A program made the translations under genes and the position numbers. 64,000 nt of DNA from the NCBI GenBank assembly GCA_031370005.1, contig JANMPT010000110.1, positions 96,001 to 160,000 on the forward strand, given 5' to 3'. The stretch is from Bdellovibrionales bacterium (GTDB lineage: Bacteria > Bdellovibrionota > Bdellovibrionia > Bdellovibrionales > Bdellovibrionaceae). Positions 35,950 through 50,257 of the stretch are shown here, piece after piece. The notes below the pieces were generated by a model that searched no databases, had not been told where the DNA came from, and was given only the letters and a program-made list of their open reading frames with translations. Position 1 is the first letter of the stretch. The number at the start of each line of letters is the position of its first letter.

Positions 35950-37692
35950 ATGTCAATTCAAGTATTGCCTCCTGAAGTGATCGATCAAATTGCCGCTGGT
36001 GAAGTGGTAGAAAGACCAGCGCATCTTGTGAAGGAGCTGGTGGAAAACAGCATTGATGCCGGCGCCACTGCAGTCACTGTGGAGTTTTCTGAAGGTGGCC
36101 GTTATGTAAAGGTTATCGATAACGGTAGGGGCATTTCCCCCGAACAATTGCCAAAGGCTTTGGAAAGATTTGCCACTAGTAAAATTTCAAAAAGCGATGA
36201 TCTTTGGAAGTTGCATACCTTTGGGTTTAGAGGTGAAGCTCTTGCAAGTATCGCAGCAGTGAGTAAGCTGAATCTAACCTCACGGCCACCTGGGGCAGAG
36301 AAGGCGCATCAGCTTTTGAGCGAGTACGGCAAGAAAATGTCTGTGGATGCAGTGGGCGGTTCTGAGGGAACCTCGATTACAATTCAAGAACTTTTTGCCA
36401 ATGTTCCTGCTCGTTTAAAATTCTTAAAATCGGATGCAGCAGAAGGCACACAAATTAAAACAACCTTGAAGGCTTTGGCTCTGGCGCATGCTGAGATAGA
36501 GTTTCGAGTTTATGAAAAAAATGAGTTGGTATTTTTCTGGCCATCTTGCATATCCCGTAAGGATCGTGTTGAACAAATTTTAGAAATTAAACCTATGTAC
36601 GTGGGGCAGGCGCAACGTGAGAACGTGATGGCCTATGCCGTTTTTGCAGATCCTCATCAAGTTGCAAAAACTGGAAGAAGTGTTTGGCTGTTTGCTCAAA
36701 ACCGCTGGGTTCAAGACCGCAGCATGCAAGCTGCAGTGATGGAAGCATATCGAAATCTGCTCATGCATGGTGAGTACCCTATTGTGGTCGTTTGGTTGGA
36801 GGTGGACCCTGAATATATCGACGTGAATATTCACCCGACGAAATCGCAAGTAAAGTTTCACAATCCATCTCTCGTATTTAGAGCGGTGCAAGCGGCAATA
36901 AGAGAAACTTTAGAAAAAGCGCCATGGACACCAGAAGTGCAAAAGGGGCCACGTGACTCTGGTTTAGGCGAATCCATGATTACTCCTCAGGTACAGTCGT
37001 CTTTTGCTCACCAAGATTTTCATGTCACTCAATTTCAAAAGAAAGATTTTTCCTTGAAAATCATGGAGAGCCCCGTTTCGACCATTTCAATGGAAGCGTC
37101 AAGCGGCTATTGGTCCACCTTAGAGGTCCTCGGGCAGGCAAATCTCACCTATATTATATGCCAAAGTCGCGACAAATTGGTTTTCGTAGATCAACATGCG
37201 GCTCATGAACGTGTGGTCTTTGAAAGATTGATGGACGCATGGAGGGGGAGCAAAATGGAAGTGCAAGAGTTTCTTTTCCCTCTTGTTGTGGACTTAACAC
37301 CTGATAAGATCGAAGCCCTGCAAAACTTTTTTCCAGATCTTGAAAAACTCGGTGTTTTTTTAGAGGTTCTGGGGCCTATAACTGTAGGAGTAAGAGCCGC
37401 GCCAACATTAATTAAAGAGTCGATTCTAAGCTCTGTGCTTGATAAAATGGCAGGTGACGTTCTAGATCTTGGTGGAAGCTTCCGAATGGAAAAAGTTGTC
37501 GGTGATATTTGTGCAACGATGTCTTGTCACTCCGTCGTGCGCGCTGGACAGGCATTGAGTGCTGAGCAGATGAGGAGTCTTCTTTCTGAAATGGATGAAT
37601 ACCCATTATCGAGCTTCTGTCCTCATGGTCGCCCAGTTTCTGTCGAATACCCTTACATAAAACTCGAAAGAGATTTCGGACGTATTGTCTAA
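35950..37692 (+). CDS. mutL: DNA mismatch repair endonuclease MutL
   Basis: IAAGEVVERP, KELVENSIDAGA, GFRGEALASI, DVNIHPTK, DQHAAHER, CPHGRP. Confidence 0.98.
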   Translation: MSIQVLPPEVIDQIAAGEVVERPAHLVKELVENSIDAGATAVTVEFSEGGRYVKVIDNGRGISPEQLPKALERFATSKISKSDDLWKLHTFGFRGEALASIAAVSKLNLTSRPPGAEKAHQLLSEYGKKMSVDAVGGSEGTSITIQELFANVPARLKFLKSDAAEGTQIKTTLKALALAHAEIEFRVYEKNELVFFWPSCISRKDRVEQILEIKPMYVGQAQRENVMAYAVFADPHQVAKTGRSVWLFAQNRWVQDRSMQAAVMEAYRNLLMHGEYPIVVVWLEVDPEYIDVNIHPTKSQVKFHNPSLVFRAVQAAIRETLEKAPWTPEVQKGPRDSGLGESMITPQVQSSFAHQDFHVTQFQKKDFSLKIMESPVSTISMEASSGYWSTLEVLGQANLTYIICQSRDKLVFVDQHAAHERVVFERLMDAWRGSKMEVQEFLFPLVVDLTPDKIEALQNFFPDLEKLGVFLEVLGPITVGVRAAPTLIKESILSSVLDKMAGDVLDLGGSFRMEKVVGDICATMSCHSVVRAGQALSAEQMRSLLSEMDEYPLSSFCPHGRPVSVEYPYIKLERDFGRIV

Positions 37693-38627
37693 TGAGGACA
37701 GCAAAACCAGTTGTTTTTGTTGTGGGCGCGACTGCCTCAGGAAAGAGTCAGTGGGGCTTGGATTTGGCAAGAAGTTTTTCTGGTGCTATTGTGAACTGTG
37801 ATAGCGTCCAGCTTTATAAATCTCTAGATATTGGTACGGCCAAACCCACTCATGAAGAGATGAGTATGGTCCCACATTACTTATATGACTATGTCCCAGA
37901 AGGGGCGACAATGACTGCTGGGAATTACTGCCGTGATTTCTTTCTTTGTATGGAAAAATTGCCTGTGGAAAAGCCTGCTTTTGTTATAGGTGGAACAGGA
38001 TTTTATTTTCAAGCCATCGAAAAGGGTATGTACCCAGTACGCCAGACCTCTATGGCGATTCAAAATGAAATCGCTGAAGTTATGAAGACAACAGGGGGGG
38101 TTGAGACACTTTACGCTGAATTTCAGCGTGTGGACCCTGAGGCTGCTAGAAAAATTCATGTACAAGATCATTATCGTTTGGGACGCGCCATGGAGCTTAT
38201 TCGCGCCGAAGGCAAAACGCTGACTCAGATTCAAAAAGAGTTCAGTGAAAAACAAACTCCATTTCCCTATCCCTTATTGAAGCTTGGCCTCCGCTGGGAT
38301 CGTGAAGTTTTGCGGGAGCGAGTTGGCCTTCGCACTCAAAAAATATTGGATGCAGGGCTTGTGGCTGAAGTCGAGGGCTTATTGGCTCGTGGCTTTGGAG
38401 AATGGCCGGCCTTAAAAAGCGTTGGCTATAAAGAGGTCCTTGAATTTCTTCGTGAGGGAAAGTCCCAGCGCTGGCTTTATGACAATATCGTGCAAAATAC
38501 CATGGGCTTGGTCAAGAGACAAAGAACTTGGTTTCAACGTGACAAGGAAATTCGCTGGTTTAGTGGTGCAACAGGTTTTCATCAGGCCCTTGAAGAGGTT
38601 GAGAAATTTCTAACTTCCCATAGGTAA
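37692..38627 (+). CDS. miaA: tRNA dimethylallyltransferase
   Basis: GATASGKS, DSVQLYK.LDIGTAKP, GGTGFY, KRQRTWF. Confidence 0.97.
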   Translation: MRTAKPVVFVVGATASGKSQWGLDLARSFSGAIVNCDSVQLYKSLDIGTAKPTHEEMSMVPHYLYDYVPEGATMTAGNYCRDFFLCMEKLPVEKPAFVIGGTGFYFQAIEKGMYPVRQTSMAIQNEIAEVMKTTGGVETLYAEFQRVDPEAARKIHVQDHYRLGRAMELIRAEGKTLTQIQKEFSEKQTPFPYPLLKLGLRWDREVLRERVGLRTQKILDAGLVAEVEGLLARGFGEWPALKSVGYKEVLEFLREGKSQRWLYDNIVQNTMGLVKRQRTWFQRDKEIRWFSGATGFHQALEEVEKFLTSHR

Positions 38628-38713
38628 AGTAGCCAAGGCTCAAACAGAGGTTCTTGGCGACTTCGAAAGAAATACTCCCAATTGGGTAAAGGCTAATGTA
38701 TCGTGGAGAGCAT

Positions 38714-39592
38714 ATGAAAAGTATGACTGGATATGGCACCGCAAAGGTGCAGCAAAAAGACCTCAATATAGAAGTCAGTATTCGTTCTGTGAATGGACGA
38801 TTCTTAGATACGAGATTTCATCTGCCCCGTGAGTTCGTAGCGTTTGAGGCAGATCTTAAAAAACTGCTTAATGAAAAAATTTCTCGTGGAACGGTGGACA
38901 TATTTGTAAACCGTAAGAACAAAGCAATTCACGAAACTGCCGAAGTTTGTGTAAATGAAGCACTTGCAAAAAAATATTTAACGGCTTTTCAAAGAATTGC
39001 TAAAGCGACCAAACTTTCACCTCAAGTTCACCTTGAAATTTTGGCTCGCATGCCAGATGTGATTCAAGTGGAAGAGAAACATGAAGTTTCTTCTCACGAG
39101 GAAAAGATGTTGAAGTCTGTTTTCGTAAAAGCTTGTGGTGATTGTGTGAAGGAACGCGAGCGTGAGGGGAAATTCTTGCAAAAAGAGCTCGAAAAGCTCA
39201 TGCATGATCTTGAAGGACAAGTCAGTATTGTGTCGAGTTTACGTGAGGAGGCAAATCGTCACTTGCAAGAGCGTTTTGAGCAGAAGATTGGCAATCGCTT
39301 AAAAGGCCAAGAAATTGATACTCAACGCCTTACGCAGGAGATTGTGTTACAGTTAGAAAAAGCCGATATAAATGAAGAGCTGGTTCGTCTTACTGAACAT
39401 ATTAAAAACTATAAAGATTTGCTAAGAAGCAGCCACGGGGAAGGTAAAAAGCTTGATTTTTATACACAGGAATTACTCCGCGAGGTGAACACGGTTGGTT
39501 CGAAGTCTCAGGTAGCCAAGATCACTCAGGCTGTGGTAGAAGCAAAAACAATCATTGAAAGACTTAGAGAACAGGTTCAAAACGTCGAATGA
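38714..39592 (+). CDS. yicC: YicC/YloC family endoribonuclease
   Basis: MKSMTGYG, SVNGRFLD, DINEEL.RL..H, GKKLDF..QE..REVNT.GSKS, REQVQNVE. Confidence 0.95.
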   Translation: MKSMTGYGTAKVQQKDLNIEVSIRSVNGRFLDTRFHLPREFVAFEADLKKLLNEKISRGTVDIFVNRKNKAIHETAEVCVNEALAKKYLTAFQRIAKATKLSPQVHLEILARMPDVIQVEEKHEVSSHEEKMLKSVFVKACGDCVKEREREGKFLQKELEKLMHDLEGQVSIVSSLREEANRHLQERFEQKIGNRLKGQEIDTQRLTQEIVLQLEKADINEELVRLTEHIKNYKDLLRSSHGEGKKLDFYTQELLREVNTVGSKSQVAKITQAVVEAKTIIERLREQVQNVE

Positions 39593-40146
39593 AAACGAGA
39601 ATGATTATTGTCGCGGCTCCTAGCGGCGCGGGAAAAAGTAGCTTTGTCGAAAGAATATGTCGCGAGGAAAAACGCCTTGAAGACACAGTCACATATACGA
39701 CAAGAGCTATGCGCAAGGGGGAGACTCAAGGCCACCCTTATCACTTTGTCTCTAGGGATGAGTTTGAAGCAAAAATTAAAGAGAACTTTTTTGTAGAATG
39801 GGCGCAGGTCCATACGAATCTTTACGGCACCCCTTATTATCAACTTGAAACCGCCTGGCTTCGTGGCAAGTGTGTCATCATGGACGTTGATGTTCAGGGA
39901 GCGGATAGTTTTAAAGCAAAATATTCAGATGCGGTTTCGATATTCATTCTGCCACCAAGTATTGACGAATTGCGTCGTAGAATTGAGAAGCGGGATGGTG
40001 GAATTCCTGAAGATATCGAAATCCGTATGGCTAATGCTGAGAAGGAGATGAGGCAGTCCTCTCACTTTGATTATCTAATTGTGAATGATCAATTTGACCA
40101 CTCCTATGGTCAATTTAAAAAAATCATTGAAGAGTTACTGACTTAG
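39589..40146 (+). CDS. gmk: Guanylate kinase
   Basis: APSGAGKSS, TTRAMRKGE..G..YHFV, YGT, DVDVQGA, FILPPS. Confidence 0.97.
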   Translation: MKTRMIIVAAPSGAGKSSFVERICREEKRLEDTVTYTTRAMRKGETQGHPYHFVSRDEFEAKIKENFFVEWAQVHTNLYGTPYYQLETAWLRGKCVIMDVDVQGADSFKAKYSDAVSIFILPPSIDELRRRIEKRDGGIPEDIEIRMANAEKEMRQSSHFDYLIVNDQFDHSYGQFKKIIEELLT

Positions 40147-40174
40147 AGATATTTTGGCCCCTTTGGAGGTATGA

Positions 40175-40417
40175 ATGGCACGCGTCACGGTGGAAGATTG
40201 CTTGAGTAAGGTTCCCAATCGTTTTGCTTTGGTATTAATGGTTTCAAAAAGAGCGAAGCAATTGCTAAAGGGTTCTGAGTGCACAGTGGCTGCGCGTAGT
40301 AATAAATATATCGTCAGTGCCCTTCGCGAAGTTGCCGCTGGCAATGTAGGTTATGACGATGCTCATATGGACCCATTGGTTCTTCATGCTGAGATTGAAA
40401 ACGATCTTAGAAAATAG
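40175..40417 (+). CDS. rpoZ: RNA polymerase omega subunit
   Basis: [18 protein letters not shown]...SKRAKQL..ALREVA. Confidence 0.96.
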
Positions 40418-40608
40418 CTAGGCTGACTTAAGCTTATTAAGTCTAGTCAGTGCTACTTCATTTTCTTAGGATTTGTATTTCCCATGAAAACGGAACTTAG
40501 TCTAAAGTCCTAAATGTTTGAAAATACGAATATATTTCACCAAGTGAACAAGTCTGCATTGAGTTTCTTTCTTGGTCCCTTTTAGCATCTACGCTATCAT
40601 TTATTGAT

Positions 40609-42825
40609 ATGTCAGAGAGCTCATCGGAAAACGGTCTATCCCAGGGACCCACAAAAACTTTAGAGGATCTTTTAAATAAAATTAGAGCCTATTTTCCGCA
40701 AGCCGATCTTAAAGTAATTGAAAAGGCCTATTATTTTTCTGAGCATGCACATGAGGGGCAAATTCGTCGTTCAGGTGAGCCCTATATTTCTCATCCGCTT
40801 TCAGTTGCGGGGATTTTGGCAGATTTACATCTGGATTTAGATTCGATTATGACCGGTCTTTTACATGACACAGTGGAGGACACCTATGCCACTCTCGATG
40901 ATATTCGTCGGGAGTTCGGCGATGCAGTGGCTCAGCTTGTTGATGGCGTAACGAAGATCTCACAAATGAAATTTAAGAATAGTAACGAAAAGCAAGGCGA
41001 GAACATTCGCAAGATGATTGTGGCCATGGGGCGTGATGTGCGTGTGCTTTTAGTGAAGCTTTGCGATCGTTTGCATAATATGCGCACGATGAACTTCATG
41101 CCCTTTGAAAAGCAAGAGCGCATTGCTCTTGAAACCCTTGAGATCTATTGCCCACTCGCAGGTCGCATGGGTATTAGTTCTCTTAAGATCGAGCTCGAGG
41201 ATTTGTGTTTCAGATATTATCGTCCGGATATGTACTATGAACTTAGTCAAAAGGTAAAAAAGACTGAGGCAGAGCGTAGTCGGTATATTGACGAAGTAAA
41301 AGATCTTATTAGTAGCGAACTGCAGTCTTCGAACTTTAAGTTTGATGTGTTTGGTCGTTCAAAACACCTGTGGTCTATTTATAAAAAAATGCAAACTCGT
41401 AATATTGATTACGAACAACTCTACGATGTTTTGGCTTTCCGTGTGATTGTTGAGACAGTTGCTGAGTGTTACGGCGTGTTGGGGTTGGTGCACTCACTAT
41501 GGAAGCCTATTCCAGGTCGTTTTAAAGACTTTATTGCCATGCCAAAAGCGAATAACTATCAATCATTGCACACCACAGTGATGGGACCCGGCGGGGAACG
41601 CATCGAGATTCAAATTCGTACTCGCGAAATGCATTTGGTTGCTGAACGCGGGATCGCCGCGCATTGGAAATACAAAGAGCGTGGAAAAGTTGATGATGAT
41701 AGTGAATTTCAACAAGTGAACTGGTTAAAGGATCTTGTGAATTCTCACCAGCAAGTAAAGAATGCCGATGAATTCCTAGACAGTGTGAAGACTGATCTTT
41801 TTGACACTGAGATTTATGTATTTACCCCGAAAGGGGAGGTGCGTGAGTTTCCCGAAGGTGCGACTCCTTTGGATTTTGCATATGCAGTTCATACTGAACT
41901 TGGAAATAAGTGTGTGGGGGCACGAGTTAATGGCAAAATGGTGCCGCTTCGCCATCAATTGCAAAATGGAGATACGATTGAAATCATCACCTCTAAAACT
42001 CAGGTGCCATCGAAGGATTGGCTTAAATACGCCGTCACTAATAAAGCAAAACAAAAAATTCGTCAGTACGTTAAGGAAGAACAGCGCCGTCGATCTTTAA
42101 CTCTTGGAAAGGATTTGGTCGAGAAGGAGTTCCGTAAGTTTGGAATGGCTGCGGTGAAACACTTAAAGGGTTCCGAGTATGAGATTTTCTTAAAAGAGAA
42201 TGGTCTCAAGGATCTTGATGAGCTTTATGTGAAAGTCGGATATGGACGACTGGAGCCCCGTCATTTGGTGGATCGTGTTTCTCCGTCGTCTATTGCCAAG
42301 GAAGCAGCGAAAACTGAAGAAACTACCTTTATGGAAAAGGTGGTTAAGGCTGCTGCCCAAAAAACTCGACGAAGTAATTCGCTTGTGAGTGTCGATGGCA
42401 TGGATGATGTGCTTGTTCACTTTGCGAAATGCTGTCACCCTATTCCCGGAGACTCCATTAGTGGATTTATTTCTCGAGGTCGTGGAATTATGGTTCATCG
42501 CGCTGATTGCCCGAAGGGCTTTGAGTTCGATCAGCTTCGCAAGGTGGACGTTGCCTGGACGAGTGATCAAGCTTCCGTAGGACAAGAGCGCATGGTGCGC
42601 GTCCGAGTCATCAGTCATGATGTTCCGGGCTTATTAAAATCAATGTCTGAAGTTTTTGCTGTTCAGGGGATTAATATCGAGTCCGCACAAATTCGTACGA
42701 CCAAAGATAAAAAGGCCTTATGCAACTTCGAAGTCAGCGTAAGGGACGCCACACAATTAAATAATGCCATCTACGAGCTACAAAAAATCAAAGGCATCCT
42801 CGGCGTAACCCGTGTTTTCCACTAA
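40609..42825 (+). CDS. spoT: Bifunctional (p)ppGpp synthetase/hydrolase (long RSH, Rel/SpoT)
   Basis: Intact HD motif (LLHDTVEDT), DRLHNMRT, synthetase KDFIAMPKANNYQSLHT and EIQIRT, then TGS, ZFD (AKCCHPIPGD) and ACT. Confidence 0.95.
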   Translation: MSESSSENGLSQGPTKTLEDLLNKIRAYFPQADLKVIEKAYYFSEHAHEGQIRRSGEPYISHPLSVAGILADLHLDLDSIMTGLLHDTVEDTYATLDDIRREFGDAVAQLVDGVTKISQMKFKNSNEKQGENIRKMIVAMGRDVRVLLVKLCDRLHNMRTMNFMPFEKQERIALETLEIYCPLAGRMGISSLKIELEDLCFRYYRPDMYYELSQKVKKTEAERSRYIDEVKDLISSELQSSNFKFDVFGRSKHLWSIYKKMQTRNIDYEQLYDVLAFRVIVETVAECYGVLGLVHSLWKPIPGRFKDFIAMPKANNYQSLHTTVMGPGGERIEIQIRTREMHLVAERGIAAHWKYKERGKVDDDSEFQQVNWLKDLVNSHQQVKNADEFLDSVKTDLFDTEIYVFTPKGEVREFPEGATPLDFAYAVHTELGNKCVGARVNGKMVPLRHQLQNGDTIEIITSKTQVPSKDWLKYAVTNKAKQKIRQYVKEEQRRRSLTLGKDLVEKEFRKFGMAAVKHLKGSEYEIFLKENGLKDLDELYVKVGYGRLEPRHLVDRVSPSSIAKEAAKTEETTFMEKVVKAAAQKTRRSNSLVSVDGMDDVLVHFAKCCHPIPGDSISGFISRGRGIMVHRADCPKGFEFDQLRKVDVAWTSDQASVGQERMVRVRVISHDVPGLLKSMSEVFAVQGINIESAQIRTTKDKKALCNFEVSVRDATQLNNAIYELQKIKGILGVTRVFH

Positions 42826-42828
42826 AGT

Positions 42829-42854
42829 AAAGGGTACCAGCTCGCTTTTCCGGA
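42829..42854 (+). repeat. Left boundary site of the RAYT cassette
   Basis: AAAGGGTA-CCAGC-TCGCTTTTCCGGA. Confidence 0.75.
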
Positions 42855-42884
42855 ACAGATCGAAACTATACACCTCTAAGCTTG

Positions 42885-42900
42885 TGGTACGGATTCTGCT
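42885..42900 (+). promoter_or_regulatory. Candidate sigma54-type promoter of the RAYT gene
   Basis: TGGTACGGATTCTGCT = GG-N10-GC, followed by GGAGG SD and GTG 42924. Confidence 0.5.
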
Positions 42901-42923
42901 TAAGACGACCTCATGGAGGTCCC

Positions 42924-43568
42924 GTGCCCCGCAAATTACATATTGCTCATTCGGAGTGTCCGTATCACGTCACAGCTCGCTCGCATGATGGAGTTTGGTT
43001 TCAAATTTCGATTTCCAAAACATGGGAAATTATGACCGACTATCTCTATTTTATTCAGCGTGCATATAAAGTGAAAATTCATTCTTTTGTTCTGATGAGC
43101 AACCATTTTCATCTCCTTATTTCGACGCCAGAAGCTAATATAAGTGCAGCTATGAACTACTTTATGAGAGAGACTAGCAAGGAAATTAATCGCATCTCTG
43201 GAAAAAAGAATCAAGTATACGGTGGGCGCTACTATCGCAGCATTATTAAATGCGATCTTCACTTTCAACACGTTTATAAGTATATTTATAGAAACCCAAT
43301 TTCTGCCAACCTAACGCCAGATTGTGAAAGCTATCGTTATAGTACATTGCACGGACTTCTTGGGAAAAGCCCTCTGTATATCCCCCTAGAGGATGATCAT
43401 TTACTGTTTGGAGAGGGAAATCTAAGTAGTGCTTTAGTGTGGCTTAATACTCCACCGAATTTGCAAAATTACGAGATTCTTAGAAAGGCTTTAAGACGAA
43501 AGATTCTTAAGTTTCCAAGAAATCGTTCTGGAGACTGTCGGCATACCTTAGAAATGCATTCATTTTAA
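42924..43568 (+). CDS. HUH Y1 transposase, REP-associated tyrosine transposase (RAYT)-like
   Basis: (M)PRK..PYHVTARS, FVLMSNHFHLLI (HUH), GGRY, YIYRNP (catalytic Tyr), YRYST (YxWSS-like). Confidence 0.9.
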   Translation: MPRKLHIAHSECPYHVTARSHDGVWFQISISKTWEIMTDYLYFIQRAYKVKIHSFVLMSNHFHLLISTPEANISAAMNYFMRETSKEINRISGKKNQVYGGRYYRSIIKCDLHFQHVYKYIYRNPISANLTPDCESYRYSTLHGLLGKSPLYIPLEDDHLLFGEGNLSSALVWLNTPPNLQNYEILRKALRRKILKFPRNRSGDCRHTLEMHSF

Positions 43569-43595
43569 AGTCAAAAGCGAATTTATTTGAATTGA

Positions 43596-43621
43596 TCCCG
43601 AAAAGCGACCAGCTACCTTTT
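43596..43621 (+). repeat. Right boundary site of the RAYT cassette
   Basis: TCCCGAAAAGCGA-CCAGC-TACCTTTT. Confidence 0.75.
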
Positions 43622-44498
43622 AAAGGTTCCAGGCGTAGCCGGCGCGGAGGTAGATTATGTTGGCTTTTACTGTTGCTGTGGTTGGGAAAAGTCCGTATTC
43701 CAAAGAAATGGGGATATAATTTTTATTATTCAGACGGATGTCCATCCCCGCTGAGAACACGAAAATCTGATTTGCGCCGAGCTGGCCTGAAGTAAACACC
43801 GAGCTTGTTGGGCTCGACATTGGATACAGATAACCTGAACCAACGCCAATCCAAGATTTATAATTCCCCTGAGTGAAGTTCCAACGGCCATAGCCATATA
43901 AAGACAGGTAAGAGATCTTCAGATCACAATTTGTCGTACATGACGTTCCAGGAGACGTGGAACTATTGCTGCCGGCAACCCCATAGGTTTCTAGTCCTCC
44001 TATGGCGCGAAGGGTAATACTCGGGGAAATAGCATAATCATAGAAACCAAGAGCGCCAAAACCAGTACCAGTCATGTTAGTTGTAATGCTTGAAGTTTGT
44101 ACCGCCATGGAGTTCATCAAATAGCCACCGATAATGCCCCATGAGTTTCCATTATGAATTTTCTGATTAAGTTTTCGGTCATAATAGTTATCACCTGAAG
44201 ACGCGGATGAAGCATTGGTAGACGTAGTGCCGCCATGAGCTTGAAGACTATATCCTGGTCGAGCAGTGCCTTTCACAATCTCTGCAATAGCGCGGTCGCC
44301 TTTTACCTGAGTGATTTTCACAATTGCTACTTTTTTTCCTTGAGCATTTATAATAAAAAACTCACTGCCAGGTGAAGTGCTTTCTCCTTCAAGTAAGATC
44401 AGGATTTTATTGTTTTTAACCAAAGATACTTTTGCGGCCAGAGCAGCATACGTTTGAAGGAAAATAGAAAGAGCGAAAATGACACTATATTTCTTCAC
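43620..44498 (-). CDS. Exported protein with C-terminal outer-membrane beta-barrel
   Basis: Signal peptide, small beta N-domain, S/T linker, amphipathic strands ending YLRAGYAWNL. Confidence 0.7.
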   Translation of the reverse strand: MKKYSVIFALSIFLQTYAALAAKVSLVKNNKILILLEGESTSPGSEFFIINAQGKKVAIVKITQVKGDRAIAEIVKGTARPGYSLQAHGGTTSTNASSASSGDNYYDRKLNQKIHNGNSWGIIGGYLMNSMAVQTSSITTNMTGTGFGALGFYDYAISPSITLRAIGGLETYGVAGSNSSTSPGTSCTTNCDLKISYLSLYGYGRWNFTQGNYKSWIGVGSGYLYPMSSPTSSVFTSGQLGANQIFVFSAGMDIRLNNKNYIPISLEYGLFPTTATVKANIIYLRAGYAWNL

Positions 44499-44578
44499 AC
44501 CAATGGCTCCTAGTTAGACGGACACATCCTTATTGTAGTTTCATTCAGAAATCGCGGGGTGGCAATCTAGCTTAGACC

Positions 44579-44980
44579 TCAGTCGAGATTGATAAGGCTG
44601 CGAGAGAGCTCGCTAAGAAAGCTTTTTTTATAGATGAGCCATGTTTTCTTAGATTCGAACTTGTAAGTACAAGACTCTGTGGTGCTCGTTGGGTTACTCG
44701 CATCGGTCTTAGAGAAAACTGTGATTTTTATTTCTCCGTTTTTTATATTATCTCTCCAAACCTCATAGTCTGGATGCATTTCAACTAACTCATGGCTGCT
44801 TTTGGGGAACTCTTCTTTAAACCAAGTCTCTGCAGCACTCAGATCGCGACAGCTTTGGAGCGAGAACGCCTGGATAGAATTAGGTGCATTTTCTTCAAAT
44901 TGCTTGCGGCCTGCAGAGCTGTATACGGAGCAGGAAGTTAGAAGCATTAAACTAAGAAAGAGTATCATTGTATTAAGCAT
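44579..44980 (-). CDS. Putative lipoprotein
   Basis: Hydrophobic leader with LTSC lipobox. Confidence 0.7.
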   Translation of the reverse strand: MLNTMILFLSLMLLTSCSVYSSAGRKQFEENAPNSIQAFSLQSCRDLSAAETWFKEEFPKSSHELVEMHPDYEVWRDNIKNGEIKITVFSKTDASNPTSTTESCTYKFESKKTWLIYKKSFLSELSRSLINLD

Positions 44981-45011
44981 TGAATAAAATTCTATGCTGA
45001 AGCTCTAGAAG

Positions 45012-45048
45012 AAGAAAAGACCCGTTTTTATTAAACGGGTCTTTTCTT
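45012..45048 (-). terminator. Terminator hairpin downstream of ssb
   Basis: AAGAAAAGACCCGTTT-TTATT-AAACGGGTCTTTTCTT, 16-bp inverted repeat. Confidence 0.85.
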
Positions 45049-45075
45049 AATGATCATGGAAAATATTTGAGCGTC

Positions 45076-45519
45076 TTAGAATGGAATATCGTCGGAGCTG
45101 CTGAAGCTTGGTTCTGGACCAAAATCTTGAAAACCTAAGTCTTCGCCATTTGAAGCGCTTTTAGTGTTATCAGCTGATCGCTCATTGCCCGCAGAGCCTA
45201 AGAATTGAACTGTATTTGCAACGATTTCAGTTGTGTATTTCTTTTGACCTTGTTGGTCTTCCCAAGAGCGAGTTTGTAAACGACCTTCCACGTAGACTTG
45301 GCGCCCTTTGCTTAAATGCTTTCCACAGATCTCTGCAAGTTTACCCCAAACAACAACACGGTGCCATTCAGTGCGCTCTTGCTTTTGCCCATCCTTGCCC
45401 ACCCAGTTTTCGCTTGTGGCGATGTTTAAACGAGTGACCGTGCTACCTTGGCCAACGGCTTTAACTTCAGGGTCAGCTCCTAAGCGGCCTATGATAATAA
45501 CTTTATTTACACCAGACAT
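45076..45519 (-). CDS. ssb: Single-stranded DNA-binding protein
   Basis: [38 protein letters not shown]-terminal DDIPF. Confidence 0.98.
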
Positions 45520-45699
45520 AATCCCTCCAATGAGACACTAAGGTTCTTGTAATTATTGAGAAGCTTGTCAATAAAGACTTCAAAAAGCTTCTAAGTTTGC
45601 CCGCTTAGTGAGCAAGAAAAAGGCCAGGTAGAGGGTGAAAGGCCTTAGTTTTGGCTTAAGCTGGTATTTGAGTTTCGGACGGAAAAAATGCCCACCGGA

Positions 45700-46668
45700 C
45701 TAACGCGCAGCGCCTATTGAAGGAGGAGTCATGGTGTTTGCCGCTGATATCTTAAATTTGTATTCAGAACCATCTGAGGTTGCTGTTTTATAGGCATCAA
45801 TAAAAGACAGGAAGAGGGCTGCACGGTCTTGAAAATTACGTTTTGTTCGTAGGTTCACATTAAAGGTATAACCGCCCAATACAGGAGATATGACGCCTCC
45901 AGCGTTTGTTAAAGTGACCTCCATATTGCCAGAGATATTGCCGCGAAGCTCATCGCCTTCTTTACCAATTTGGCCATTTTCGATGATGAGTTTCCCACCA
46001 GCAAGACGTCCTTTAAGTTCAATTGTGGACAATTTTAAATCTGGCAAAGTTAAAGGTCCCATGGGCGTCATCACATTGGATGGGGGCAGCTCGAATTGGC
46101 TAATGCTAAAGTTCACTTCCATATCCGGTTGCTCTATGAAAGCCAGGTCCACCAGGGCTGTGGATTCGAGGTTTAAATTTCCCTTCATCATCACAGGAAG
46201 TTGAGCCACCTCGCGAAGGTCTTGAAGGCTGAGTTTTTGCGCGTTGATTTCAATTTTTTGCCTCTCAACGCCATTTTCAGATCGGGTACCAGGTTTTACG
46301 CTGATTTGAACGTTACCTTTGAAAAGACCCTTCGCATACATTACCCCATAGGGTTTTTGTGAAATCAATCCGCTGATTGAAGGAGTAAAACGGATTTCAT
46401 GAGCGGAAACTCCAGGGATACCTTGGGCTTCAACAAAAATCTGTTCAAACTTCACTCCTGGAGAGGGGAAGATGGACATCTTAAGTTCCTCAAATTGCAA
46501 AAACAATTTATTGCCAGACAAACGAGCGACTTGTGAGGAAACCAAATCGCCAAGGTCATTCACGGGAAACAGAATCAACAGAAAGGCCACTGTTGAGATC
46601 AGCATCACAAGCAATTTTAATTTTGAATTAAAGAGGATACGAAAGGCTTTCTGGACGAACTCCATCAT
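45700..46668 (-). CDS. gspN: Type II secretion system protein N
   Basis: N-terminal TM ending LFP, AsmA-like beta-rich body; last gene of the gsp cluster. Confidence 0.75.
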   Translation of the reverse strand: MMEFVQKAFRILFNSKLKLLVMLISTVAFLLILFPVNDLGDLVSSQVARLSGNKLFLQFEELKMSIFPSPGVKFEQIFVEAQGIPGVSAHEIRFTPSISGLISQKPYGVMYAKGLFKGNVQISVKPGTRSENGVERQKIEINAQKLSLQDLREVAQLPVMMKGNLNLESTALVDLAFIEQPDMEVNFSISQFELPPSNVMTPMGPLTLPDLKLSTIELKGRLAGGKLIIENGQIGKEGDELRGNISGNMEVTLTNAGGVISPVLGGYTFNVNLRTKRNFQDRAALFLSFIDAYKTATSDGSEYKFKISAANTMTPPSIGAAR

Positions 46669-47363
46669 TAGCGATTCCCTCTTTTAAAGGATTTCTTCTT
46701 GGAAGAGTCCTTATGGTCACTGTTTTCAGCAGCATCAGGAGTTTCTAGGTGAGCCTGAGGAACAGCGAGGGACACCAATCGCATCTCCATATCAAGATAT
46801 CGAGAATCTTCCTGGTTTGTCGAAATATTCAAAGAATTCATTTTAACACTAGGACTGATATTTTGAATATTGTAGCCAAGGTCCACAATTTGTCGAAGGT
46901 TTAATTTCGCGAGAGAAATTTTCAAACCTGACTCAAGTAAATTCTTTGGAATCAGTCCGGTCTCTGCAGAAATGATTTCGATAGCTTTTATTTGCTCAGG
47001 TAATAGATGAGCTATACTGAGCTGATTCTCGACATTGCTTTTTAGAATTTCGGCAGTAGGAGCAACAGGAAGATCGGGGACTTCGGAGGACTCCCGAGTC
47101 ACTTTCAATAATTCACGAATAAGACTTCGCTTTGCCTCGTAAGTTGAGATATTTGCAGTAGATTGAGAGTAATAAGAATAGGGAATAGAGATAACCATAA
47201 GGGCCATCAGAGCGCCAGCACCCATCATGGTTAACATTTGATGGGTCGGGCTGAGATTCTCGAAACGATCTTTCAGTTGATTATAGAAAGAGGTCTCCTC
47301 GATACGAGACCAGCCTTGTCTCAGGTGAGATTTTAAATTGTCTTTTAAATCGTCAATATTCAT
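46668..47363 (-). CDS. gspM: Type II secretion system protein M-like
   Basis: FENLSP..Q then single TM and ferredoxin-like C-domain; position after gspL. Confidence 0.65.
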   Translation of the reverse strand: MNIDDLKDNLKSHLRQGWSRIEETSFYNQLKDRFENLSPTHQMLTMMGAGALMALMVISIPYSYYSQSTANISTYEAKRSLIRELLKVTRESSEVPDLPVAPTAEILKSNVENQLSIAHLLPEQIKAIEIISAETGLIPKNLLESGLKISLAKLNLRQIVDLGYNIQNISPSVKMNSLNISTNQEDSRYLDMEMRLVSLAVPQAHLETPDAAENSDHKDSSKKKSFKRGNR

Positions 47364-47370
47364 CTTTCAC

Positions 47371-49041
47371 CTATTGAATGCTTTTTGTAATACCACGGGC
47401 AACTTTGAAATTAAATGAAAATGCTGTTTTGCCAATTGCAGGTTTTAGCTGAGTGGCGCGAGCCGAAACGACACCGTCTATTGCTAAATTACTGAGTGCT
47501 TGCTGGAAGGCGGATAGTTCTTTGACATTGCTCACATAACCCTCGAGAGAGACCTCACTGTCGCGAATATGAAGACTTTTCATGTCAAGAGTGATGACAT
47601 TTTTTGAGGGTGCTGCATCGCTGATTTTTTTTAGAATCTCTATGGCTGAGTTCATAGAAGCTACGCTCGCAAGAGTCCTTAGATCAGCGGCACGCTTTTT
47701 ATTTTCACGAATATACTTTTTAAGATTGGCCTCGGTGGCCTTTTTGCCAGATAGTTTAGCAACATTTTTAGCTTGAGTTTTCAAAGCCTCCTCAGCGCGA
47801 TCAGCAAGCTCCATAGTGAATGTTTCGCGCAACATCGAGTAAGCAAAGAAGATTACAAGAGCGGCAGTGGCTACCTTGAGGGTTGGCGCCCATTTTTGCC
47901 AGAGATTTTTTGCATAATTATTTTGTTTTGCAAATTCACCTTTAAGGAAGTTTACCGCAGGATTGCGCGGTTTTTTAAGTCCTTCAATTGCGATTCCCAA
48001 AGCCATTCCAAAAGTAGAGTCCGTTTTGGTACTTCTTTCAAAAAGGATATTTGGGACTAAGTCTAATGGATAAATTTTATTTGCTGGAAGTTCTAATTGT
48101 TGAGTTAAGAATGGACCTAGGTTTTTAATACTGGAAGAGCCGCCTGTTAGGCCGATTTGAGAGATCACGGCATTGAACTCAATTTTAAATTCAAGAATTG
48201 ATAGTTGCAAATCGCGCACGAGCTCACGCACTGACTTTGCGATAGTTTCAGAGAAAGTGATTTGATCGAAAGTCGCCCCATGTTTATTTGTCAAAATAAA
48301 GGCTTTGTTCTGGACTTCTTTTAGAGCATCAAGGTATGGAATTTCATATTTTTTTGCTACTGCATCTGCGATGTTTTTTGCACCCCATAAGACAGTTCTA
48401 ACACCAACTAGTGAGTTGTTTTCAAAGGCGCAAACTAATGTTCGAGTATGTCCCATGTTCAGGGTCAAATGAATGCTGCGTTCGGGACGAATTGCGCCTT
48501 CAAGCAAACTGGTCTCAACGGCGGGGAATGCTGGTGGGAAATCATTCCATTTTTCAAAAATATTAGCGAAAGCAGTGCCCTCAGTGGAAATGATCGCCGG
48601 TTCAATATTGGCATCTGAGCATCTTTGCAACAAAGTACGGATATGATGCTTAGGAGCTGCGCAGGCGAGAACCTCTGCAGAGTTGCCTATGGTGCGAATA
48701 GTTTTGGCATCAAAAATGGAGTTCTCGCCAGAGAAAGGGATTTCTTCTTCAAGTTCGAAAGCTAAGCTTTTAGAAATTTTTAGTCGGTCGTTAAAAGGAA
48801 AAATTTTATTACGAATGCTGACCTGATCTTGGCGAAGGACAAGACAGTATCGGGTGGATGAAGGATCATACTTTGCAGAAATTTCTCTTAAGAACTCAAT
48901 AATTTCAATTTCTTGATCATGGGCCTGATTTAGTCCAAGCGGGCGTTCAAAGCACTGAGTGACTTGAAAACCTTTACTTGTAGTTAGCATTTCTACAACT
49001 TTAATGCTGCTACTGCCAATGTCGATTCCAATAGATCTCAT
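47371..49041 (-). CDS. gspL: Type II secretion GspL (PilM-like actin-fold domain, TM, PilN-like domain)
   Basis: IGIDIGSSSIKVVE, LTGGSS, VNFLKGEF, TM, periplasmic domain; ATG 49041. Confidence 0.8.
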   Translation of the reverse strand: MRSIGIDIGSSSIKVVEMLTTSKGFQVTQCFERPLGLNQAHDQEIEIIEFLREISAKYDPSSTRYCLVLRQDQVSIRNKIFPFNDRLKISKSLAFELEEEIPFSGENSIFDAKTIRTIGNSAEVLACAAPKHHIRTLLQRCSDANIEPAIISTEGTAFANIFEKWNDFPPAFPAVETSLLEGAIRPERSIHLTLNMGHTRTLVCAFENNSLVGVRTVLWGAKNIADAVAKKYEIPYLDALKEVQNKAFILTNKHGATFDQITFSETIAKSVRELVRDLQLSILEFKIEFNAVISQIGLTGGSSSIKNLGPFLTQQLELPANKIYPLDLVPNILFERSTKTDSTFGMALGIAIEGLKKPRNPAVNFLKGEFAKQNNYAKNLWQKWAPTLKVATAALVIFFAYSMLRETFTMELADRAEEALKTQAKNVAKLSGKKATEANLKKYIRENKKRAADLRTLASVASMNSAIEILKKISDAAPSKNVITLDMKSLHIRDSEVSLEGYVSNVKELSAFQQALSNLAIDGVVSARATQLKPAIGKTAFSFNFKVARGITKSIQ

Positions 49042-49060
49042 GTATGCCCTTTTTAAACGT

Positions 49061-50257
49061 TTATCGCTCGCTCCAGTATACAATCCTAGGTGGGCCTTTG
49101 GGAAGCGCAGGGGTCTGACTTTGGGCTTGGTTTTGTGCAGGTTTCCCGCCGGAGGCATCTTTCTTCTCTTTATCGACGTAAGCCCTCACTGTGCTTGCGA
49201 CACCTTGTAGGTCCATGACGATTACGGTGATCTCACGGGAGACACCCGCGTATTCGCCAGTACTTTTGATTCTGAAATTCATAACCTTATCGAAAATCAA
49301 GGGGGTTTCTTCAGTTTTTTCACCTAAGCGGACGCCTTTTCCAGTGATAAAGCTCCAGAATTCTTCTTTATTTTTAAAAGGACCACCTTCACTTGGAGTG
49401 TCGCGGTGTTTGATGATGGCATCGGCAATTTCATCGGTAATCTCAGAACCCAGGGACTTGAGGACTTCCTTGCTGGCTTGATTGGGGTTGATGGCCTTCA
49501 TCCCATAGATTGTGATACTTGGCTCAAGCAATTCATAAAAATCTTCACTCATCCCTGGCACTAAACGTAATTCTTGAATGGTGCGAAACCCGCGATTGGG
49601 TGGATAGTTTTCGGGATACTCGTTATAGCCTTGGCGTTTGTCACCACCGTTAACGCCGGTTTTAACATTTGATTGCCAGTCGGTGATTGCATTTACAAGC
49701 TCTTCAAAACGATAGTTGCCGTATTTGCGCTGAAATTCCTCATCACTTTTGAGCTTGCCTTGGAAAATTTCAAGTAAGCGGCGGCGAGTGGATTCTTGCA
49801 AAGCTTTTGACGGCGAAACCAAATCACCGATATCTAGCTTGGATCCCTCATCTTCAATAGTGACTACGTAGGAAGCATCCATAATTGATTCTTTCAAACT
49901 ACTTTTGATACTGTCTTTGTCAACAGCACTAAGGCCGTCGGGAATGGGGACAGGCCAGGCAAAGGGGAATTTCCAGATCTGATCAAGCATTTCAGATTGA
50001 CCGCCCAGCTGTTTGCCAAATTGTGAGCTGGCTTGTTGAAAGGTTTTAATCCGTAAAAGGCTTAACTCAACGCCAGAGCGAGCAGCATAGTAGGCTTTCA
50101 GACGGTTTAGGGAATTGACGTTGACATTATACTCAACCAAGGAATCGTAAGAGACCTCCATGGCGATATAAGAAATCAATAGCACACAAGTAATGGCCAA
50201 GATGAGCGCCATTCCCTTTTGGTTATTGAGTAGTTTGAGTCCCACCGGTGTTCGCAT
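49061..50257 (-). CDS. gspK: Minor pseudopilin GspK
   Basis: QKG|MALILAI without E5, AYYAARSG, IEDEGSK, ELRLVPG, INPNQAS; start uncertain. Confidence 0.88.
   Translation of the reverse strand: MRTPVGLKLLNNQKGMALILAITCVLLISYIAMEVSYDSLVEYNVNVNSLNRLKAYYAARSGVELSLLRIKTFQQASSQFGKQLGGQSEMLDQIWKFPFAWPVPIPDGLSAVDKDSIKSSLKESIMDASYVVTIEDEGSKLDIGDLVSPSKALQESTRRRLLEIFQGKLKSDEEFQRKYGNYRFEELVNAITDWQSNVKTGVNGGDKRQGYNEYPENYPPNRGFRTIQELRLVPGMSEDFYELLEPSITIYGMKAINPNQASKEVLKSLGSEITDEIADAIIKHRDTPSEGGPFKNKEEFWSFITGKGVRLGEKTEETPLIFDKVMNFRIKSTGEYAGVSREITVIVMDLQGVASTVRAYVDKEKKDASGGKPAQNQAQSQTPALPKGPPRIVYWSER

Follow-up and report, generated by a model that had tools for sequence, protein, structure and literature searches.

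A TIRtron beside spoT in Bdellovibrionales: same-site inversion and replacement of Y1 transposase cassettes

A transposase gene enclosed by short repeats and lying between two convergent bacterial genes raises the question of which kind of element it represents and how such an element moves. The locus occupies positions 42829–43621 of the window (the whole stretch of 64,000 nucleotides analyzed, originating from the Bdellovibrionales genome referred to as G000) and is located between spoT/relA (40609–42825, + strand), the left neighbor outside the element, and a 292-aa gene without a Pfam family (43620–44498, − strand), the right neighbor, which adjoins spoT in relatives featuring an empty site. 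The initial annotation described a RAYT-like HUH enzyme in a cassette with attL/attR-like ends sharing a directly repeated crossover core, and proposed a distinct mobility mode. Arms and core were recovered as reported there: the left end (42829–42854) and the right end (43596–43621) match in inverted orientation at 12 of 13 positions of the inner and 7 of 8 positions of the outer arms, and CCAGC is directly repeated at 42837–42841 and 43609–43613. This is not a chance match: of 1264 13-mers sampled from the window, a single one was accompanied within 800 nt by an inverted counterpart differing at no more than one position. The view of a cassette that comes, goes, and rearranges at its ends was likewise borne out. 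The type of element, however, is not new, since Y1 genes flanked by terminal inverted repeats (TIRs) have already been described (PMC3733652); the cassette is an element of the known TIRtron/TIRYT type, that is, a Y1 gene between TIRs of a dispersed repeat family. Its inversion at one and the same site is new, as are the swapping of cassettes up to breakpoints in the TIRs and a single new-site insertion that lacks both a palindrome and a target duplication.

The gene of the TIRYT-type HUH/Y1 tyrosine transposase (42924–43568, + strand; an intact protein of 214 aa) starts with a corrected GTG codon at 42924, preceded by an RBS-like GGAGG at 42915–42919, and its homologues begin with MPRK at the same column. 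Its description as a RAYT-like HUH enzyme was confirmed by the Pfam match to Y1_Tnp (33.7 bits), by the HUH and catalytic tyrosine motifs (H61-F62-H63 and Y120 in YIYRNP), and by the predicted structure (pLDDT 96.7), for which the E. coli TnpA-REP (4ER8) was the best PDB match (E 3e-8). None of the residues H61, H63, Y120, N124, P125, and S140 varies among the 105 homologues compared; the first motif reads NHFH in 91 and NHYH in 10 of the 105, and YxxxNP and S140 are present in all of them. Classification as a classical REPtron (RAYT groups 2 and 3) was rejected, as no stable hairpin REPs with a GT[AG]G foot lie by the gene and the RAYT model NF047646 scored 61.6 bits, under its cut-off of 80. 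Membership of IS200/IS605 was also rejected, based on the missing distinct subterminal hairpins, the presence of TIRs, the missing near-identical copies, and a score of 23 bits for NF033573 (cut-off 55). Of 151 genomes sampled from the order Bdellovibrionales, 92 contain a homologue (E 1e-30), and the titles of the best 80 related loci in the genome-contig collection nearly all referred to Bdellovibrionales or close groups.

Upstream of the gene, a possible sigma54-like promoter (GG-N10-GC; 42885–42899, + strand) represents a weak candidate deduced from a motif match. As a family-wide feature, such a promoter was discarded as weak: the strict pattern occurred in 3 of 104 upstream regions and a looser one in 16 of 105, compared with 46 of 1660 control windows. 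In many homologues, as judged by eye rather than by count, TTGC stands some 13 nt upstream of the ATG and a clear ribosome-binding site is missing; this placement would fit a sigma54-type −12 box combined with a leaderless mRNA.

Comparison of the two element ends revealed that their inverted match reaches further inward than first described. The left TIR, a member of repeat family A, extends over about 32 nt (42833–42864, + strand) and begins 7 nt 3′ of the spoT stop; the right TIR (43586–43617, − strand) begins 2 nt past the stop of the neighboring gene. Read inward, both start with GGTA, in agreement with the earlier remark that they are not GTAG-footed. The sequence common to both ends of one element begins at this GG (42833 and 43617) and not at the variable A-run (42829–42832), which precedes the left TIR and is not element-specific. 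Between the stop codon of the transposase gene and the right TIR, the inner arm recurs in a further short copy (AAAAGCGA) at 43573–43580. The first 18 nt of the right TIR equal those of the left one with nt 4–10 inverted, so that the direct core of this element amounts to a 7-nt micro-inversion. One point change does not account for the three-base direct core. At the conserved position 4, the focal pair alone among 126 pairs of ends shows a mismatch, and its ends match at 19 of 24 positions; with the heterogeneous family A taken into account, the focal copy looks aged.

To place this arrangement, 162 homologous loci were scored (103 of the 105 retrieved, two incomplete ones being omitted, and 59 further loci), all of them best-scoring matches and many of them kin. 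Inverted ends counted as a TIR pair when 17 or more of 24 positions matched. Such pairs were present in 130 of the 162 loci, whereas distant control windows reached this level in 0 of 141 cases. Their ends carry the tag GGT[AG]C, and the family consensus is an imperfect palindrome centered on the 5-nt core. This core was inverted-identical in 117 of the 130 pairs and direct in 2, the remaining 11 differing in other ways; a few anchors in the set are off register. In the second direct case, the difference is a single base. Hence, the claim of attL/attR ends with a directly repeated crossover core did not extend to the family. In three other members (L047, L049, and L140), CCAGC itself is inverted-identical. 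Given this and the composition of the right end, the simplest reading of the focal direct core would be that this end either decayed or underwent an isolated micro-inversion.

The spoT site in relatives led to the same result. In G004, it is occupied by a sister cassette with perfectly inverted ends and inverted cores. The genes at the spoT site of G000 and G004 form a sister pair (97/92) in opposite orientation, and that of G006 is oriented as in G004. In the spoT tree, G000 is sister to the empty G005, and G004/G006 are sister to the empty L062. Empty sites comprise 16 nt in G001, 18 nt in G005, and about 80 nt in L062, of other sequence. The palindromic empty site predicted to follow spoT was encountered in none of these three, and the exact predicted hairpin had no match in the genome-contig collection. 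A scan of metagenomes for the spoT end retrieved one locus, which was empty. Solo repeats at orthologous sites are common to G000 and G004 or G006, and these favor one old insertion followed by inversion and losses over two insertions. The spoT-site element is thus probably old, with one insertion, one inversion, and at least two losses.

It was therefore considered whether the ends could still be attL/attR products of a circle that integrated into a palindromic empty site, by means of the focal enzyme or of a second recombinase. The direct 7-nt core of the focal element points in this direction, as does the empty site of G005, where an A-run and a T-run form a faint palindrome that contains neither the GGTA arms nor the core; moreover, later homogenization of the ends could mask direct cores in old elements. 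However, direct cores are limited to 2 of 130 pairs, the second owing to one base change, the same-site sister in G004 is perfectly inverted, and the core (CCAGG) is fixed in 33 of 36 family-A copies of G004. Empty sites lack the hairpin at spoT and at three other sites, and the focal element is old with diverged ends rather than fresh. This origin is accordingly regarded as highly improbable. No circle-junction-like site was found in the G000 contigs, the assembled contigs of a sequencing run that contains the stretch and is possibly its source showed no joints and are uninformative in this respect, and no second recombinase was seen among the ORFs of window positions 36000–50000 (Pfam on 6 of 24 ORFs).

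Where the ends are exchanged can be approached from the distribution of mismatches between the two ends of one element. For 126 pairs, end-to-end mismatch relative to family diversity amounts to 0.6–1.0 outside the GG and to about 0.0–0.2 at positions 2–13, the inside values being lowered by the selection for at least 17 of 24 matches, which by construction reduces mismatch inside the TIR, in loci related by descent. The step in identity falls at the GG and none is visible at the core; from the GG inward, positions variable across the family are matched between both ends of one element. These values argue against a reading in which each TIR serves as a pseudo-palindromic site and is cleaved close to the apex (after GGTRCC), so that inverted cores would lead to inversion and exchange and the rare direct core to excision into a hairpin and a circle. 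In its favor are the imperfect palindrome of the consensus, five nested partial copies ending at GGT[AG]C(C), and swapped pairs of cassettes that are identical through GGTGCC and differ thereafter. On the other hand, the focal ends do not fold, since in single-stranded form neither was better than shuffled sequences (z 0.87 and −0.08), and no excision product or empty hairpin was found. Exchange at the core is hence considered improbable.

Sites shared between loci were defined by both flanks, with one genome per species; a looser clustering by one flank chained several sites and was discarded. At 10 sites with both flanks shared, cassettes were present in both orientations at 3 and in a single orientation at 7. 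The largest of these sites has 24 members, split into 18 and 6, and requires 3–4 changes of orientation on the flank and gene trees. At another site, occupied in 21 of 44 retrieved genomes of that genus, five full genes point one way and three the other, all within a single clade (100/98). Replacement was examined in same-site pairs with flanks at least 85% identical. In L086/L104, flanks of 97% and 96% identity enclose genes of 71%; the corresponding values are 98/98% and 76% for L107/L114, and 92/92% and 62% for L102/L112, whereas vertical control pairs retain 88–96%. Identity holds up to the TIR and drops inside it, the break being at the TIR on both sides. One locus, L101, represents an insertion at a new site, which is empty in 5 of 5 relatives and shows neither palindrome nor target duplication. 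Gene clades mostly track sites; jumps to new sites are therefore rare. Between the end of a flagellin-like gene and the TIR of L086 and L312–L324, a conserved, structured-looking intergenic stretch ending in a terminator occurs genus-wide; Rfam matched none of five loci searched, L086 included.

Inversion and exchange could be mimicked by host recombination. The gene would then be a domesticated RAYT-like gene that at most spreads small repeats, and flips and swaps would result from host recombination or template switching between the 25–35-bp inverted repeats, together with allele exchange via conserved flanks. In accordance with this, there is one gene copy per lineage and genome (G000 contains no near-identical second copy, the next best reaching 44%), and clades are mostly site-bound. 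Solo-repeat sites common to G000, G004, and G006 indicate a long vertical residence, the plasmids and phages searched provided distant matches (25–30%) or none and no clade member, and RAYTs were described as non-jumping in passages of 10.1101/2021.07.10.451892. Old alleles at one site with flanks homogenized by host recombination would give an equally sharp break at the last shared sequence, and some windows of 80–84% identity do lie beside the TIR in L102/L108 and L105/L111. In the two best replacement pairs, in contrast, the break falls at the TIR on both sides, and neither a donor tract nor an identity dip was found in the adjacent flanks. Furthermore, small indels and nested partial copies concentrate at the outer TIR edge, proteins 68–73% identical reside at unrelated sites, and the insertion in L101 is clear. 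Domestication with host recombination is thus held to be unlikely, albeit less so than exchange at the core.

TIRs are also dispersed as families in the genomes. Among 7 genomes of the genus, family-A repeats (at most one mismatch) occur in 3, with 9 copies in G000, 36 in G004, and 17 in G006, which are exactly the genomes with the spoT-site gene; the other four contain none. The initial annotation had suggested scanning for solo and paired sites, and G000 does contain family A elsewhere as solo copies and inverted dimers, but the family is heterogeneous there (3 exact of 11), and only one near-palindromic solo site, at C108, was detected. Two further TIRtrons of the clade reside in G000 (C2:42085–42849 and C70:79426–80195; 44% and 43%), with inverted ends of their own and dispersed families of about 15 and 20 copies, respectively; hybrid dimers of the two families are located at C70:32004–32056 and C99:100224–100276. 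Other Y1-like genes in this genome comprise a divergent clade member (33%) without detectable TIRs (C99:27112–27534), a classical TIRYT with GGGGACAG-type TIRs on a short contig of 56% GC (C90:1–1528), which is probably a bin contaminant, and a different gene of 192 aa that lacks clear inverted ends and is present in three near-identical copies (C2:8915, C55:8769, and C81:33035). The latter gene looks like that of an active IS200-like element.

The repeats are positioned close to gene ends. Altogether, 22 of 46 TIR-like matches in G000 (a few of the 46 being weak or doubly counted) lie within 3 nt of an upstream stop, the figure for control sites being 59 of 3008. In one case, the TIR adjoins the T-run of a terminator rather than a stop. 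Outward deletions, trimmed by selection to the last needed base, may explain why ends abut stops and terminators. Partial upstream TIR copies were present in 18 of 258 TIR-like contexts, five of them being nested duplications of 11–12 nt that end 5–7 nt into the TIR, at GGT[AG]C(C), one at the spoT end of G006. As separate observations, a TIR-bounded cassette in L057 lies as a new one within the first codons of an older cassette, and short tandem repeats occur 3′ of the gene in L052 and L057.

Taken together, the element is a TIRtron whose TIRYT probably cuts one strand of TIR copies in single-stranded form and links these copies together. This model is inferred from established HUH chemistry, namely the formation of a 5′-phosphotyrosine and strand transfer by a 3′-OH as outlined in passages of PMC8266576. 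The TIRYT, which presumably does the cutting itself, would nick a TIR on one strand, at its outer edge or after GGTRCC, and connect it with a further copy of the repeat. If the two sites are identical and lie on opposite strands, an inversion would result after repair, an incoming related cassette at the same site would lead to exchange, and short derivatives would account for the spread of solo and paired TIRs. More tentatively, TIRYTs might be HUH site-specific recombinases that act on paired inverted sites, where they would flip their own cassette, replace it by an arriving one if the site is already occupied, and insert additional cargo genes bounded by TIRs. The addition of cargo is suggested by arrays of 3–4 TIRs at one site: in L064, L065, L068, and L074, situated between two convergent genes, such arrays hold varied cargo genes with or without a transposase, and the inward-pointing cargo genes each end at a TIR.

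Within the known systems, no RAYT group is larger than the TIRYTs (RAYT Group 1), and the general view is that RAYTs do not mobilize themselves. The term TIRtron appeared, in the literature searched, only in the 2013 paper that coined it (Di Nocera et al. 2013, PMC3733652); the RAYT-like Y1 genes described there lie between TIRs that bear no relation to GTAG REPs. According to passages of this paper, one genome may contain several TIRYTs with different TIRs, forming moderately abundant families of single repeats and dimers, some of them partly self-complementary, and the end motif GGGGWSAS belongs to some TIRs without being universal. The focal gene corresponds to this description as a RAYT-like tyrosine transposase with HUH motif, long non-GTAG TIRs, and dispersed single and dimer families, whereas the ends of its clade start with GGT[AG]C and not with GGGGWSAS. 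Bdellovibrio is not named in its text or in four of its supplements, and its passages contain nothing on inversion, replacement, or empty sites of TIRYTs. No published description of the GGT[AG]C-tagged Bdellovibrionales clade or of in-place inversion and replacement was found in a search that covered few subscription journals.

Passages of later studies tie TIRYTs to the TnpA-Y1 subclass 2.1 (Quentin et al. 2018, PMC6006769), which equals RAYT Group 1, described by Bertels et al. (2017, PMC5581495) as resembling IS elements more than any other RAYT group does. The focal clade shares with it NH[YF]H, YxxxNP, a conserved serine after the core, a length above 200 aa, the lack of REPs, a low copy number, and Deltaproteobacteria-like hosts, as far as these traits are given in the passages concerned. 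It may differ in that the 20 TIRYTs placed there all possess an HTH, whereas Pfam detected none in 90 clade members, the predicted model featuring short C-terminal helices. Neither activity nor rearrangement is reported for this group in the passages of PMC6006769 and PMC5581495.

REPtrons or REPIN-RAYT systems (E. coli TnpA-REP, 4ER8) resemble the focal type in fold, in a gene-specific dispersed repeat with inverted dimers, and in the absence of the repeat where the gene is absent. GTAG REPs often supply or abut stop codons, according to passages of PMC3733652, and the repeats of the focal clade likewise often abut stops. Unlike REPtrons, the focal ends have no GTAG/GGAG foot, the family-A hairpin is weak, one TIR (sometimes a dimer) lies on each side, and the cassette itself flips and is replaced. 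With IS200/IS605 TnpA proteins (IS608 and ISDra2), the focal enzyme has the Y1 HUH fold in common, and no target duplication was seen at the one new site; its ends, however, are inverted copies of one sequence instead of distinct left and right hairpins, and no multi-copy spread is apparent.

An invertase or cassette-exchange reaction of Y1 enzymes is not described in the passages of the literature examined. The Bdellovibrionales clade offers defined ends of 25–35 bp together with natural footprints of inversion, replacement, and new insertion, which makes the function of the enzyme directly assayable; if the enzyme is responsible, its 214 aa would constitute a single-protein system for inversion and exchange. 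Such outcomes are familiar from loxP and FRT sites with recombinase-mediated cassette exchange, where inverted pseudo-palindromic sites lead to inversion and exchange of the intervening DNA. The likeness is one of outcome only, as the focal enzyme is an HUH nuclease and not a tyrosine recombinase.
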